64,000 nucleotides of DNA from Alphaproteobacteria bacterium (GCA_045597005.1 JAZODJ010000022.1:51379-115378); one strand, 5' to 3'. Counted from the first letter of the stretch, positions 57,399-63,491 are shown. Notes: generated from the sequence alone by a model not told the origin. Numbers and translations are program-made.

Positions 57399-57447
57399 TG
57401 TTGTTTAGATGAGGGGACATCTAAACTTTAACTTAGGGGAATATTGT

Positions 57448-57870
57448 ATGGATTTGCAGAATCTTACAGTTTTTAGCATGGCTAATCAAAATATGAAATA
57501 TTTATCGGCAAAAGAACGTATAATTGCCGCAAATATTGCTAATGCATCAACCCCAAACTATCTTCCGCAAGATATAACCAAACCGACATTTTTCAGCAAT
57601 TTAAAGGTCGAAAAACCTTTACTGGATATAAAAACAACCCATAACAAACATATCGGTAGTCTGGTATCTCAAACAAAACCGAAAAATAACGGTCCGTTTA
57701 TCTATACCCCTCAACCCACAAATGCACTTACCATTGATGGAAACGGAGTGGTATTGGAAGACCAAATGAACGAAGCCAGCAAGGCCAGTTCCGAATACAA
57801 AAGAATGATTACAATTTATAACTCGTACAAAAATATGCTCTCGGTAGCTAACACCAAAATTAGCGGATAA
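57448..57870 (+). CDS. flgB: Flagellar proximal rod protein FlgB
   Basis: LSAKERIIAANIANASTPNY (rod N-terminal motif) and the flgB-flgC-fliE order. Start at ATG 57448 behind agggga; the track starts at 57409. Confidence 0.85.
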   Translation: MDLQNLTVFSMANQNMKYLSAKERIIAANIANASTPNYLPQDITKPTFFSNLKVEKPLLDIKTTHNKHIGSLVSQTKPKNNGPFIYTPQPTNALTIDGNGVVLEDQMNEASKASSEYKRMITIYNSYKNMLSVANTKISG

Positions 57871-57876
57871 TGAAAA

Positions 57877-58290
57877 ATGGCTGGTAATTTATCATTAAGT
57901 GCAGATATCGCATCTTCCGGAATGAAGGCTCAAGCAGAACGCTTGAAAGTCATATCGCAAAATATGGCAAATGTCGATTCTGTATCTGCCGAACCGGGAG
58001 GAGAACCATATCGTCGCCAAGTGGTAAGTTTTCAAAACTATATTGATCCCGAAACCGGAGCGCAAAAGGTTCGTGTCGACAAAATAGTAAAAGATATGTC
58101 ACCTTTTGAAAAAAAGTATGATCCCAATCATCCGGCTGCAGATGCCAATGGTTATGTATCATTACCCAATGTCAACACATTGGTTGAAATGATGGATATG
58201 AAAGAAGCACAACGAGTTTATGATGCTAATTTAAATATGCTGAAAACAGCAAGAGAAATGAATTCCAGCGTATTAGATATATTAAAATAA
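57877..58290 (+). CDS. flgC: Flagellar proximal rod protein FlgC
   Basis: SGMKAQAERLKVISQNMANVDS, HPAADANGYVSLPNVN and VEMMDMKEAQRVYDANL are canonical FlgC blocks. Confidence 0.9.
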   Translation: MAGNLSLSADIASSGMKAQAERLKVISQNMANVDSVSAEPGGEPYRRQVVSFQNYIDPETGAQKVRVDKIVKDMSPFEKKYDPNHPAADANGYVSLPNVNTLVEMMDMKEAQRVYDANLNMLKTAREMNSSVLDILK

Positions 58291-58305
58291 AAAGGGGAAT
58301 AAAAA

Positions 58306-58626
58306 GTGGTTAACAGCGTAACTAATGCACTAAACGCATATCAAACGGCTCTAAACAGGATCAACAACACACCTGCAACACCCAAAGCTCAATCACTCAA
58401 TGAGCCTAAAGAAACTTTTGGACAGGTTTTAAGCAACATTGTTGAAAACGCTGTAGATTCCCAAAAGCAAGCAGAGATAACAACCATCAACGGCATTGCC
58501 GGCAAAGCGGATATTCAAGATGTTGTTTTAGCTATATCCAACGCAGAACAAGCATTAGAAACTGTTGTTGCTGTTCGTGATACAGCAATCAAAGCTTATA
58601 ATTCAATTATGCAAATGAACATTTAA
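58306..58626 (+). CDS. fliE: Flagellar hook-basal body complex protein FliE
   Basis: 106 aa with a GTG start behind aagggga. FGQVLSNIVENAV and the C-terminal LETVVAVRDTAIKAYNSIMQMNI match the FliE pattern. Confidence 0.8.
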   Translation: MVNSVTNALNAYQTALNRINNTPATPKAQSLNEPKETFGQVLSNIVENAVDSQKQAEITTINGIAGKADIQDVVLAISNAEQALETVVAVRDTAIKAYNSIMQMNI

Positions 58627-58685: not shown

Positions 58686-59050
58686 CATCCAAAGGAGCCT
58701 TTTTTCTTTTGTCATTCAGAGGAGCCACCCCTCCCTCTGTCATTCAGAGGAGCCGACAGGCGACGAAGAATCCATAAAATCAGAGACTCTTCGCGTTACT
58801 CAGAGTGACATAAAATGGATTGCTTCAGCGCAAGCGCTTCGCAATGACTTTTCATTCTCTGTCACTGCGAGGAGTGACAACGACGAAGCAGTCCATAAAA
58901 AGGAGTGGATTCCTTCGTCGCTATCGCGCCTCGGAATGACATAGGGGAAAAAATCTTCCTCGCTGCAACATAAAAAAATAAAAGCTGTCTCGAAACAATA
59001 TAAAATTACCATCATGCCTCCGAACGAAGTGAGGTCAGGGCATCTTCAAT
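58686..59050. repeat. Cluster of REP/MITE-like imperfect palindromic units
   Basis: At least seven ~30-35 nt units of the type gtcaYtc.gaggagY....cgacgaag.a.tcc occur in both orientations. Examples are gtcattcagaggagccgacaggcgacgaagaatcc, its inverted partners ...cttcgcgttactcagagtgac and ggattgcttcagcgcaagcgcttcgcaatgac, and gtcactgcgaggagtgacaacgacgaagcagtcc / ggattccttcgtcgctatcgcgcctcggaatgac. Track ORFs 58666..58944(+) and 58800..59015(-) are translations of these repeats. Confidence 0.8.
58859..58986 (+). repeat. Flanking direct repeat, copy A (3' side of the flagellin gene)
   Basis: 128 nt (tctgtcactgcgaggagtgacaacgacgaagcagtcc...cctcgctgcaacataaaaaaataaaagc). By eye it aligns with 61328-61453 with 4-5 substitutions and one 2-nt indel. 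Confidence 0.85.
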
Positions 59051-59062
59051 ATTTCGCTATTC

Positions 59063-61175
59063 TTAAAACAAACTCAAGATACTTTGTGCGGATTGTGATG
59101 CCAGCGAGAGTGAGTTTGTTGCCAACTGTTGGCGCGTCTGCAACGCCAAATAATTTGCCGATTCTTCATTCATATCTGCCAACACCAGATTATCAGCACC
59201 GGTTTCCAAGACATCAATAAGCGCATCGGTAAAATTTTGCCTTGTTTGAATCAGTTGATATTGATTGCCGAATGCCTCGGAATATTCGCGCAATTTGTTT
59301 ATTGCCAACACCAACTCGTCCAAAGCTTGTTCAACATCAGCAACACTTTTCCAATCGACAGTTTTTAGCCCTATTGCATCATACTTGGCATCAACTCCTG
59401 ACACCTCGATATTATGAACTCGCGATTCATTTAATGTTACGCTCAATTTACCATTATTCAACAAATTGATTCCCTGATACGACGTATCTTTTATCATATC
59501 ATCATAATTGCTCAATATCTTCAAATATTGCTCGCCGAAATTATCCGCCAAACTATCGTCGCTGATAATTTCGGAGCCGGCTCCGCCGGCATAAGATACC
59601 GCACTTGCCACTACAATACTTCCCATAGACTTCATTGCTGTTAATAATGCTGAGGCATTATAATTCGTTATTGCCGTAATATCTTCTGTATATTTCGCAC
59701 TTGTTGCCCAATATGTATTGGTGGTCGAACCGCCGTACGGATTGTCGGCATTAAAATTGCCCGTTGAACTTGTACTGCTGAATGTTAAATCCTTGAGGTT
59801 AACTATCTTTACTGAACCGTCGTTATTTACTGCACATACTATACCGACTGCCGTTTTGCTTCCGTCATAATCATCAGCCGATCCCCAAGTTTTATCACTG
59901 TACATAACATCGCCAATTTGTGGGGCAGCTCCGCTGCCACCGCCACCTACGGTGCCGGAAAGGGTTGAAGGGTTAAAGCAATTTTCTAAAAGCTGGAAAC
60001 AACGGACGAGGGTTAGTGTTGTTCTTATTGCCGTTGTAACGGTAACCATTACTTGTACTCAATTTCCAAGAAAAGTTATTAGATTACTCAGAAGAGGACC
60101 AATAATAACCGCTCATTTCCGATGCAACGCTTGAATCTTTAGCTGCCAAGGTGCCTAACGCATCGTTGATGACCTTCATATTACTTGTATCATAACTTGC
60201 AGCACCACTTGTTCCACTTCCTGAGGTCATTGCACTGGTATCTGTGCCATACATATCCATCAACTCACCTATTGATGGCAAATACCACGTCCCTTGATCA
60301 AACTCTCCACTCGTGCTGCCTACATAAAATTGATTAGCTGCTGTTGCTGCCAGACTATGTTCTTCTAGCTGATTTACTATTGCTTTGGTGTTTGCTTCTC
60401 CTGCATATAGATTAACTGCATCATCATTTCCATTCTGGAACATTTGAGATCCTGTTCCACTTACCTTTATATTGGATGGATTATCTATTATTACACTTCC
60501 TCCATTTAATACTTGTATTCCTTTTACATTGGTGCCACTGGCTTCTATTATCAAATTCGATATTTCTGCAATTGAATCTGCCCCATCTACTACTATCGCA
60601 GAACCTCCACTTGCGGAATTATAAACTAGCTTATGTCCATTACCTTCTATTACAACGTCACTTGTTCCTATATTTAAACTCTCGCTTAGCGTTACATCTC
60701 CGGATAATACTAGCTTCGTCGCTCCGCCTGCTATAAGCGCCTCTATTTCCGAAGCTCCTGATCCTGCCGGTACTGCTGTATATCCTTCCGCTATAAAGTC
60801 TTCTATCGGGCGTGATACTACCCCACTACTTCCTTCTCCTCCTGAAACTCCGCTCTGCGATGAAGCTCCACTCTGTGACAATGCTTGCTCCACAACTGAC
60901 TTAGCTTGCTCTAAAAACGTCAAGCCGATCTCTATTCCCTCGGACGCCGCACTTAAGGTTTGTATCCCCTGTCCCATACTGTCTAATAATGAGGCCAAAT
61001 CACTCGCCCTGTTCGTTAACGCTCGTGCCTGATAATAACTACTCGCATTGTCCAATGCCGAATTTACATCCTTACCAGTAGACAAACGCTCCTGTGTCTT
61101 ATCCATTTGTGTCGAAATCGTTTTTAACGACTGCAAATTACTGCGCATACTCGAGGTTAAGGTGATCCGGTTCAT
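59063..61175 (-). pseudogene. Flagellin carrying an internal DGR variable region, currently interrupted by an in-frame TAA and a +1 frameshift
   Basis: ORF 60084..61175 starts with a flagellin N-terminal D0/D1 domain (MNRITLTSSMRSNLQSLKTISTQMDKTQERLSTGKDVNSALDNASSYYQA...). ORF 59063..60049 ends with a flagellin C-terminal domain (LDELVLAINKLREYSEAFGNQYQLIQTRQNFTDALIDVLETGADNLVLADMNEESANYLALQTRQQLATNSLSLASQSAQSILSLF). The junction is the VR. Total span is 2113 nt; removing the single extra VR nucleotide gives 2112 nt, or 704 codons in one frame. The central part has beta-helix-like repeats and a DUF1566/CLec-like module (WYLPSIGEL ... GYYWSSSE ... VRC). Confidence 0.85.
59991..60102 (-). other. 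DGR variable repeat (VR)
   Basis: The reverse complement (112 nt) is ttggtcctcttctgagtaatctaataacTTttcttggaaattgaGtacaagtaatggtTaccgtTacaacGGcaataagaacaacaCtaaccCTcgtccgttgtttccagct. Capitals mark the only differences from the TR. Confidence 0.9.
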
Positions 61176-61282: not shown

Positions 61283-61453
61283 CCCTCCCGTCATCCTGAA
61301 CGCAGTGAAGGATCCCCCTTTTTTTCTTCTGTCACTTCGAGGAGTGACAACGACGAAGCAGTCTAAAAAGGAGTGGATTCCTTCGTCGCTATCGCGCCTC
61401 GGAATGACAGAGGGGGAAAAATCTGCCTCGCTGCAACATAAAAAAATAAAAGC
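61283..61453. repeat. REP/MITE-like units plus flanking direct repeat copy B (61328-61453), 5' side of the flagellin gene
   Basis: gtcatcctgaacgcagtgaaggatcc is followed by a 126-nt copy of the 58859-58986 repeat. Track ORFs 61193..61495(-) and 61230..61526(+) are translations of these repeats. Confidence 0.85.
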
Positions 61454-61709
61454 GAACTCGCAACAACAAAAAATTGCATTACTTAAAATAAACACCTATA
61501 AATTTGCGGATAAATTAAAAAAATAAATTTGTTTCTACAAAAATTATTCCATAATACAAAAGGCAATTTGAGCGGAGATTAAAAAGAAGTATTCGCCGGA
61601 ATTTTAATAATTATGGTTATTAAAAGTGAGCATCTTTTTATAAAAAAAGGGTCATTCACAGCAATCAAATGCTGTTAAGAACAATAGCAATGACAAAAAA
61701 CTGTTTGGC

Positions 61710-61820
61710 TTGGTCCTCTTCTGAGTAATCTAATAACAATTCTTGGAAATTGAATACAAGTAATGGTAACCGTAACAACAACAATAAGAACAACAATAAC
61801 CACGTCCGTTGTTTCCAGCT
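61710..61820 (+). other. DGR template repeat (TR)
   Basis: 111 nt: ttggtcctcttctgagtaatctaataacaattcttggaaattgaatacaagtaatggtaaccgtaacaacaacaataagaacaacaataaccacgtccgttgtttccagct. In the target's frame it is rich in AAC/AAT codons (S N N N S W K L N T S N G N R N N N N K N N N N H V R C). It lies 47 nt upstream of the RT start. Confidence 0.9.
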
Positions 61821-61867: not shown

Positions 61868-63166
61868 ATGACCTTATTTGACCCCGAAAATACTGCATTA
61901 ACTTGTCAAATACCTCTTGAAGAGGTTTTTAATGCTTATTACGAATGTCGACGCAACAAACGTCGCACAGTCAACGCTTTGGCATTTGAGCTTAATTTTG
62001 AACACGAACTGATTCGTTTGTGGCAAGAAATTAATACCAACAAATACAAAATCGGCCGTTCAATTGCCTTTGTTATAAAACATCCGGTACAACGTGAAGT
62101 ATTTGCAGCCAATTTTCGCGACCGAATAGTACACCATTTGGTTATATCTAAAATCAATCACCTATTTGAAGAAGAATTTATCCCAACAAGCTATAGTTGC
62201 CGCGAAGGGAAAGGTGTTTTATATGGGGGCAAAAATATCAAAGCACAAATGAAAGATTGTTCCGAAAACTACACCAAAGATTGCTACATCTTAAAACTGG
62301 ACATACGTTCATTCTTTATGAGTATCAACAAAAATATTCTTTATCAACGCTTACATGCATTTGTATCCGAAAAATATCATCAACCGGATAAACCCATCCT
62401 ATTACGACTTATAAAACAAATAATATTTTATGCTCCTGAAGATAATTGCACCATCAAAGGAAAATGGGCTGATTGGAAAGGACTTCCCTGTTATAAAAGT
62501 TTGTTTTGGTCTGAAGGACATTGCGGACTTCCTATCGGTAACCTAACGTCTCAAATATTTGCTAACTTTTATCTCAATAGCCTTGATAAATACATAACAG
62601 AAACATTAGGAATAAAACACTACGGACGATATGTCGATGATTTTATACTGATGCACCAAAACAAACAAACCTTAATAGAAGCCCACCAAAAAATCAAAAA
62701 TTTTATCTCTTCAGACCTCAAACTCTATCTTCATCCGCAAAAAGTATATTTGCAACATTATAGCAAAGGTGTAAAATTTATTGGTAGCGTTATCAAACCT
62801 CATTGCATTTATATTGGCAAACGTTCAAAAAACAACCTATACAACAAAATTTATTCCTTATTACCCCAAATGGCTAACAACGTACAAAATACTCTGGATT
62901 TATTACAACATTTCACCTCTAGCATCAATTCATATATGGGATTTATGCGACACTACAATACCTATAATCTACGATGCAAAATAACAAATCTTTTAGAAAC
63001 AACTTTTTTGGGCAACATTTTACTGCAAACCCCTAATGCCTTAAAAATTGCAATTCATAAAAATTTTACCGCAAAAGAATTAAAAAAACGCCAATTGCGA
63101 CGACAAAAACAATACCGAAAAAAATTAAAAAAACATCTACAGGAGAATATTTATGGTCTTGTATAA
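61868..63166 (+). CDS. DGR-type reverse transcriptase
   Basis: 432 aa. REVFAANFRDRIVHHLV, then LPIGNLTSQIFANFYLN (the [ILV]GxxxSQ motif that distinguishes DGR RTs from group II and retron RTs), and the catalytic GRYVDDFIL. There is no endonuclease or maturase extension. TR lies immediately upstream. Confidence 0.9.
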   Translation: MTLFDPENTALTCQIPLEEVFNAYYECRRNKRRTVNALAFELNFEHELIRLWQEINTNKYKIGRSIAFVIKHPVQREVFAANFRDRIVHHLVISKINHLFEEEFIPTSYSCREGKGVLYGGKNIKAQMKDCSENYTKDCYILKLDIRSFFMSINKNILYQRLHAFVSEKYHQPDKPILLRLIKQIIFYAPEDNCTIKGKWADWKGLPCYKSLFWSEGHCGLPIGNLTSQIFANFYLNSLDKYITETLGIKHYGRYVDDFILMHQNKQTLIEAHQKIKNFISSDLKLYLHPQKVYLQHYSKGVKFIGSVIKPHCIYIGKRSKNNLYNKIYSLLPQMANNVQNTLDLLQHFTSSINSYMGFMRHYNTYNLRCKITNLLETTFLGNILLQTPNALKIAIHKNFTAKELKKRQLRRQKQYRKKLKKHLQENIYGLV

Positions 63167-63491
63167 CCAACTTCCTATTTATCGAGATGCATATCAACTT
63201 TTGTTGGAAATATACCAAATAACCAACAAATTTCCTCGTGACTTCAAATATACTCTCGGACAAGATATGAAAAAAAGCTCTCTTGAACTGTTCAAAGAAT
63301 TATACAATGCAAATGTTTCTATCGAAAATCGTAAAGAATGTATCAATAGATTTTTAGCATCATTCGAACTCTTAAAAATAGAAATGCGATTATGCACAGA
63401 TTTACAAATATTATCCGTCAACAAACTGGCTCAACTTAGCTTAATTATGGATTGTATCGGCAAACAAGCTTCCGGTTGGCGTAAAAAATAA
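63153..63491 (+). CDS. avd: Avd-like accessory variability determinant (four-helix-bundle protein)
   Basis: 112 aa. LPIYRDAYQLLLEIYQITNKFPRDFKYTLGQDM ... IGKQASGWRKK follows the Avd / 23S-rRNA-intervening-sequence-protein family pattern (FP+..KY.LG ... GKQ..GW.K). aggag SD. Overlaps the RT stop by 14 nt. Confidence 0.8.
   Translation: MVLYNQLPIYRDAYQLLLEIYQITNKFPRDFKYTLGQDMKKSSLELFKELYNANVSIENRKECINRFLASFELLKIEMRLCTDLQILSVNKLAQLSLIMDCIGKQASGWRKK

Follow-up and report, generated by a model that had tools for sequence, protein, structure and literature searches.

In the window analyzed here, a 64,000-nt stretch of an Alphaproteobacteria bacterium assembly (GCA_045597005.1, JAZODJ010000022.1:51379-115378) from the gut, an intact diversity-generating retroelement (DGR) targets an internal domain of a flagellin, and a TAA codon encoded in its template is either opened or left closed by adenine mutagenesis, resulting in ON and OFF alleles. 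The target is best explained as an Lcl_C/C-type-lectin-like domain internal to the flagellin, and the first codon to be diversified is a TAA that the template passes on as a heritable feature. Comparison with related loci showed that the stop is template-encoded and conserved and that natural populations hold both ON and OFF alleles, with distinct haplotypes.

The locus is a DGR with the template repeat (TR) beside the reverse transcriptase (RT) gene and the variable repeat (VR) within the flagellin gene. The TR (61710–61820, plus strand) is 111 nt long, contains 41 adenines and, when translated in the VR frame, gives WSSSE*SNNNSWKLNTSNGNRNNNNKNNNNHVRCFQ. The VR comprises 112 nt (59991–60102, minus strand). 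The alignment of both repeats covers 111/112 nt, and the common block begins with TTGGTCC. All nine substitution sites correspond to TR adenines (41 of 111 TR bases; 0.37^9 ~1e-4), with zero non-A mismatches and one extra base in the VR. Because the substitutions are confined to adenines of the RT-proximal copy, this copy is the TR of a DGR and the copy in the flagellin gene its VR. The TR ends 47 nt upstream of the RT gene (61868–63166, plus strand), which encodes an intact protein of 432 aa with the motifs IGNLTSQ and YVDD (RVT_1, E = 6e-20). With IGNLTSQIFANFY and YVDD, the protein matches the DGR-type motif pattern ([I/L]GxxxSQ, YxDD). Next to it lies the gene for the bAvd accessory protein (63153–63491, plus strand; 112 aa; E = 3.9e-18; 66 bits, with the cut-off at 40). 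Homologs of the RT number in the thousands, mainly in MAGs of gut Alphaproteobacteria, and the closest ones inspected adjoin a TR and bAvd.

At their 3′ ends, TR and VR share an identical block of 18 nt (CGTCCGTTGTTTCCAGCT; 59991–60008, minus strand), which is a candidate for the IMH-like terminus of this tract in homing. A hairpin search 3′ of the VR yielded a single weak hairpin ~60 nt off (z = -1.6). Upstream of the TR, we detected a structured element (61605–61709, plus strand) consisting of two hairpins and a long-range helix; one hairpin is formed by TTTTAATAA/TTATTAAAA, and the helix encloses the other. Based on the homologous stretches from 16 loci (L001, L003–L013, L016, L087, L089 and L090), 13 of the 32 predicted pairs show compensatory changes, and the element probably belongs to the DGR RNA. 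Rfam contained no family for this TR-flanking RNA, its sole hits being spurious miRNA matches to the palindromic repeats in the flanks. A metagenome scan with the conserved element upstream of the TR returned three loci, none of them with a stop in the TR. In more distant relatives (L017, L019, L023–L027, L058 and L068), a single RT gene is preceded by two to four TR-like units in tandem, and a separate structured element lies upstream of every unit.

The flagellin gene is split into two parts. Its N-terminal ORF (60084–61175, minus strand; 363 aa) comprises Flagellin_N, a beta-helix-like region and most of Lcl_C (DUF1566). The C-terminal half (VRCFQLLENCFNP ... Flagellin_C; 59063–60008, ORF 59063–60049, minus strand) is open throughout in the +1 frame; it takes in a second domain as well as the C-terminal helices of the flagellin and runs to position 59063. 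In the repaired flagellin of ~703 aa, Flagellin_N (E = 6e-10) and Flagellin_C (E = 3e-5) were recognized, and Lcl_C was found with E = 1.4e-5 at 25.8 bits, under the Pfam cut-off of 34.9; many of the flagellin homologs carry PF07603. We identified at least 484 full-length homologs of 650–800 aa with the arrangement Flagellin_N, Lcl_C and Flagellin_C. A true two-gene layout with separate N and C proteins was considered and rejected, as hundreds of relatives possess a single ORF of 650–800 aa. The VR lies mid-gene, about 330 aa from the end of the flagellin.

The homolog P0121 shares 80% identity with the repaired window protein, and its AlphaFold model reached a mean pLDDT of 79. The VR (residues 333–372) is modeled in beta strands with pLDDT above 90, in a domain inserted between the flagellin helices, and the stop-derived residue is placed just past the first of the VR strands. 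Comparison of the whole model with the PDB matched Caulobacter flagellin filaments and filament cores, mainly through the flagellin cores. Apart from these, the sole match was to the C-terminal domain of Legionella Lcl (8q4e), and it was weak and local.

The genes flgB, flgC and fliE (57409–58626, plus strand) provide a flagellar context that is common to the orthologous loci L090 and L093. On either side of the flagellin gene lies a direct repeat of ~160 nt (58848–59007 and 61318–61475; 87–92% identical) that is composed of palindromic REP-like units. These repeats could mediate exchange or loss of the flagellin cassette, which is conceivable because the flagellin alleles are strongly different between strains with 97%-identical flanks. 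In a further locus (L091, 5001–7091), a 76%-identical flagellin (P0122) carries a diversified-looking VR, with RT and TR absent within 5 kb on either side; this flagellin could be either an orphan or the target of a DGR located elsewhere.

Directly after the sequence encoding WSSSE, the VR contains an in-frame TAA (60084–60086, minus strand) that ends the flagellin N-terminal ORF, and the matching TAA lies in the TR at 61726–61728 (plus strand). The initial annotation had noted a stop in both repeats, 16 nt inside the homology, and we confirmed it at both positions. The frame is set by the upstream 363-aa ORF (...GYYWSSSE-TAA) and by full-length relatives that read through in-frame. With this codon, the window TR departs from the stop-proof codon layout that has been reported as a regularity of DGRs. 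That the TAA is read through or reassigned and the flagellin made in full appears next to impossible. TAA is the main stop codon of the window, terminating 33 of the 47 long ORFs and occurring internally in none, and a search for a suppressor tRNA found none among the four tRNAs of the window; the check for suppression or recoding proposed at the outset therefore gave no sign of either. The genome has a G+C content of 36%, and the context TAA-T is not known to be leaky. The frame is open after the TAA in two related VRs (L094 and L096), which is all that speaks for readthrough, and in the window the protein would be truncated anyway by a frameshift (see below).

The view of the initial annotation that a Tyr codon is usual at this position agrees with the full-length homologs: among 120 of them, Tyr was the commonest residue after WSSSE (42 of 116 motif sites), and Tyr, Ser and Phe together dominate. 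In related TRs, TAT and TAC are common at this codon. The TAA itself is kept in the TRs of the two orthologous loci (L090 and L093) as well as of L003 and L087/L088, as the suggested comparison with homologous DGRs revealed. Following GAG, the TR reads TAA TCT AAT AAC AAT in the window, TAA ATT AGC AAT AAT in L090 and TAA TCA AGT AAC AAA in L003. Judged by these alignments, the TAA is retained while the adjoining TR codons diverge.

To what extent the stop is opened can be seen in the relatives. Two near-conspecific loci, L090 (GCA_045637985.1, contig JAZUAM010000027.1) and L093 (ENA ERZ28593768), share the gene order RsmB, FlhB-like, flgB, flgC, fliE, flagellin, TR and RT; their flanks are 95–97% identical to the window at the DNA level and their RTs 96–97% identical. 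In both, the TR reads GAG TAA ATT AGC AAT AAT TCT TGG.... Opposite this TAA, the VR has TAC (Tyr) in L090 and TGG (Trp) in L093, and the flagellins are intact with 733 and 734 aa, respectively. Their downstream VR haplotypes are unlike each other and differ from the TR almost only at adenines. The more distant L003 (RT 70% identical) combines a TR TAA with a VR TGG and a flagellin of 729 aa. The predicted conversion of TAA to TNN via the TR adenines was thus observed in three loci, and TAC and TGG are each linked to a downstream haplotype of their own in L090 and L093, as had been anticipated for sense variants. The relatives are not uniformly TAA in the VR; such uniformity would have spoken against the proposal.

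Further template stops were found in the same clade. In L087/L088 (RT 84% identical to that of L003), the TAA is kept in an otherwise diverged TR. The TR of L013 (5816–5934, 9236–9354) contains TGA at the conserved second Trp codon, opposite TGT in the VR of an intact flagellin of 786 aa. In L089 (5848, 9054), TAA lies one codon later in the TR, with TCC in the VR and an intact flagellin of 765 aa. The VR of L092 (TTC) shows 7 non-A mismatches to the TR of L087, so that this pairing is uncertain. The closest genome, GCA_045637985.1, harbors two flagellin-DGR cassettes, L090 on JAZUAM010000027.1 and L005 on JAZUAM010000028.1 (2904–5217). The RT of L005 is 96% identical to that of the window, and an additional base at a pair of adenines, again in the 3′ AAY tract, breaks its flagellin in two. 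The TR of L005 has TAC and its VR GGC, a non-adenine mismatch that suggests an alteration of the TR codon after the last homing event.

Closed alleles were found as well. A search with the N-terminal flagellin fragment returned database proteins ending exactly at ...WSSSE, and metagenome contigs spanning the whole VR carry the TAA as sole lesion. The VR of L094 (ERZ27318262) reads GAG TAA GTT AGC ACT TTT... and that of L095 (ERZ28594592) GAG TAA GTT AGC AAT GGT.... As the contigs of L094–L097 carry no TR, the first two were compared with the TR of L090, which gave 17 A-site and 1 non-A mismatches for L094 and 15 A-site and 0 non-A mismatches for L095. In L094, the frame is open past the TAA, which is the only lesion. 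The same holds for L096 and L097, from two further samples and with a distant flagellin, whose VR reads GAG TAA TAT TCA.... Beyond the window, the OFF set therefore amounts to four contigs with three haplotypes from independent samples. Compared with a single TR sequence, present on the contigs of L090 and L093, the four VR haplotypes of L090, L093, L094 and L095 differ almost only at adenines. Different VRs apparently derived from one TR are the mark of ongoing mutagenic homing, here in relatives of the window. Some VRs thus hold an unaltered copy of the template TAA, whereas in others changes at its adenines have turned it into a sense codon, and the ON (TAC, TGG) and OFF (TAA) alleles all lie at the templated codon, as expected of a local programmed mechanism.

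In the window itself, the TAA alone does not decide the state of the flagellin. An extra VR base, overlooked in the initial annotation, puts the N and C halves into different frames (60009–60010, minus strand): the TR has AACC-A-CGTCC and the VR AACC-CT-CGTCC, so that a TR adenine is replaced by CT. Removal of one base restores a frame of 703 codons with a single internal stop. The gene is therefore interrupted twice, by the TAA and by this +1 frameshift, and both lesions lie inside the 111-nt VR with none elsewhere in the 2.1-kb gene (chance ~0.003 for two random lesions). This confinement to the VR points to the DGR as their source rather than general decay. Slippage of the RT at an adenine beside a run of C may have added the extra base; slippage has been discussed as a model for bRT (PMC12875486), and frameshifting TR/VR indels are on record in other DGRs (PMC5758913). 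The 3′ AAY tract is where the length differences of VR against TR concentrate, with +1 in the window and L005 and an in-frame +3 in L093 (6147–6270) and L092 (1420–1545), which suggests that slippage of the RT is frequent there. Many database flagellin ORFs also carry tails indicating a frameshift inside the VR. An apparent +2 frameshift in L007 was left uncounted for lying 24 nt from the contig end.

The two disabling lesions in the target could also mean that the system is dying, with a decayed TR, a flagellin pseudogene and a DGR inactive in this genome. The share of mutated adenines, at 21% the lowest in the clade (others 28–55%), points the same way. We nevertheless regard this alternative, which the initial annotation had offered, as very improbable. 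Against it stand the intact RT (432 aa, 96–97% identical to that of relatives) and bAvd, the lack of any non-A mismatch between the window TR and VR, and the placement of both lesions in the VR. Moreover, the same template TAA serves intact targets in L090, L093 and L003.

Slightly less probable again is an artefact, in which the TAA or the extra base of the VR would be an assembly or sequencing error, for instance a miscalled homopolymer or a chimera of TR and VR. Populations are heterogeneous in their VRs, and the extra base lengthens a CC run to CCC, both of which would favor such errors. However, a protein identical to the truncated 363-aa product is independently on record (P0241), a chimera would require a crossover inside 16 nt of common sequence, and TAA-bearing VRs recur in four other assemblies from different projects.

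To judge how often a template stop should persist in the VR, we considered 18 TR/VR pairs. The codon after GAG was changed in 11 of them, showing that the homing tracts reach this codon; the possibility raised initially, that VR variation always begins downstream of it, does not apply. On average, 40% of the TR adenines were changed, and the outcome in the VR at TR adenines was A in 0.60, G in 0.19, T in 0.14 and C in 0.07 of cases. At this retention, a TAA template is predicted to yield a stop fraction of ~0.5–0.6. The initial estimate of stops in 3 of 16 outcomes has to be revised to about one half because ~60% of the TR adenines stay A. Among the eight VR haplotypes tied to TAA-type templates, four carry TAA. 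So close to what is expected without selection, this fraction is as compatible with neutral tolerance as it is with switching under selection.

Stops in the template are not evenly distributed among DGRs. We found in-frame stops in six of 17 distinct TRs of the flagellin clade, a number inflated by shared ancestry and reflecting at least three independent origins, compared with none of 31 other DGR TRs (Fisher p = 0.001). The 31 comparison DGRs are more distant, came from the same RT search and have their VR at the C-terminus of non-flagellin targets.

A simpler rival to selection is mere tolerance of the stop. The TAA would then be a neutral or mildly harmful mutation of the TR (TAY to TAA), selection would act on the VR products, and OFF alleles would be failed homing events without a function, with no selected phase variation. 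TAT/TAC as the commonest TR state at this codon is one change away from TAA, the TAA share of 4/8 lies close to the expectation of ~0.5 without selection, and frameshifted VRs, which are plainly errors, are likewise common; frameshifting TR/VR indels are known from other DGRs (PMC5758913). We consider this reading unlikely, though clearly less so than decay or artefact, for the TAA is kept while the neighboring TR codons diverge (window, L090 and L003), the stops occur at three different TR codons in the flagellin clade and at none in the 31 other DGRs, and stop-prone codons are strongly depleted in TRs (10.1101/2025.03.24.644984; 10.1101/2023.09.22.558884).

Under the preferred reading, which we consider probable, of a DGR-driven opening and closing of the flagellin gene, mutagenic retrohoming of the fixed T and the two mutable adenines would place TNN in the VR. 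If neither adenine is changed, or if TAG or TGA results, the flagellin would be cut before its C-terminal D1/D0 polymerisation domain (OFF). Changed adenines would yield Tyr, Phe, Leu, Ser, Cys or Trp and leave the gene open (ON). The gene could also be turned OFF by a second route, the slip of one base in the 3′ AAY tract. The C-terminal D1/D0 region of flagellin is needed for filament assembly; since a stop or frameshift in the VR removes it, OFF means that no functional subunit is made from this gene. Each homing event would redraw the ON/OFF state, and diversification of the flagellin surface domain would be coupled to the switch. In the window, a further homing event would be expected to overwrite and repair both lesions because the TR has the correct length.

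The proposal of DGR-driven phase variation thus stands as far as ON and OFF alleles with distinct haplotypes in nature are concerned; that this variation is adaptive is only our inference. The alleles were seen between strains and samples, from which switching within lineages at a useful rate may be extrapolated. We also infer selection on the TAA rather than mere tolerance, either because it allows phase variation or because it opens the way to Trp, Leu and Tyr at a position where aromatic residues are favored. One possible gain is that an immunogenic or phage-targeted filament protein can be switched off. Another possible gain lies in the coding capacity, TAA being the sole T-initial codon from which Tyr, Phe, Leu, Ser, Cys and Trp can be reached by adenine-only mutagenesis. 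More tentatively, and with doubts that outweigh our confidence, we suggest that gut Alphaproteobacteria harbor a large, hitherto undescribed family of DGRs directed at flagellins, in which selection has made template stops part of the design. With TAA or TGA at a diversified codon of an internal VR, each homing event would be a draw between the loss of the flagellin and a new surface on it, fusing phase variation with antigenic or ligand diversification and giving access to Trp, Leu and Tyr, a combination beyond the reach of AAY codons.

Templates of DGRs are widely held to avoid nonsense codons, and it has even been suggested that elements under selection can be told by this avoidance. The placement of TR adenines is said to prevent nonsense codons, with natural TRs showing a depletion of stop-prone codons (10.1101/2024.11.15.621889; 10.1101/2023.09.22.558884; 10.1101/2025.03.24.644984). 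A natural, conserved template stop contradicts this accepted rule. In the literature, over which our search was incomplete and hence weak as evidence, we found no description of natural template-encoded stops or of DGR-driven ON/OFF switching. If the preferred reading is correct, a DGR can be an ON/OFF switch besides a diversifier, here acting on flagellin, which in the gut is a major motility organelle, an immune target and a phage receptor. The analysis also exposes a large and barely described family of flagellins that are diversified by DGRs and contain a putative lectin-like domain in their interior. Flagellin has been named once among the functions of DGR targets (PMC6642488); that list gives no account of the family, an internal VR or template stops, compared with the at least 484 homologs found here.

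In its components, the system resembles the BPP-1 DGR (Mtd/TR/Avd/bRT) and other canonical DGRs: it possesses TR, RT and Avd, transfers information from TR to VR in an adenine-specific manner, and combines an AAY-rich TR with a putatively lectin-like variable domain that closes with a block conserved at the 3′ end. It differs in that the TRs of canonical DGRs are described as stop-avoiding, whereas the window TR itself encodes a TAA. Furthermore, the VR lies mid-gene, so that a stop or frameshift removes an essential domain, and the target is a flagellin encoded on the opposite strand. In an engineered DGR reporter, a TR with TAATAA gave VR products in which the adenines of the stop codons were mutagenized (PMC12875486). 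That system is a lab construct with stops at the gene end, whereas the stop described here is natural, conserved and internal, with both outcomes found in the wild. Classical flagellar phase variation is brought about by Hin inversion in Salmonella or by slipped-strand tracts, as in flagellar genes of Campylobacter. The flagellin DGR would share with these systems a heritable flagellin ON/OFF state that results from a programmed local DNA change. In contrast to them, the proposed DGR switch would operate by reverse-transcription-based rewriting and would change the surface sequence simultaneously.
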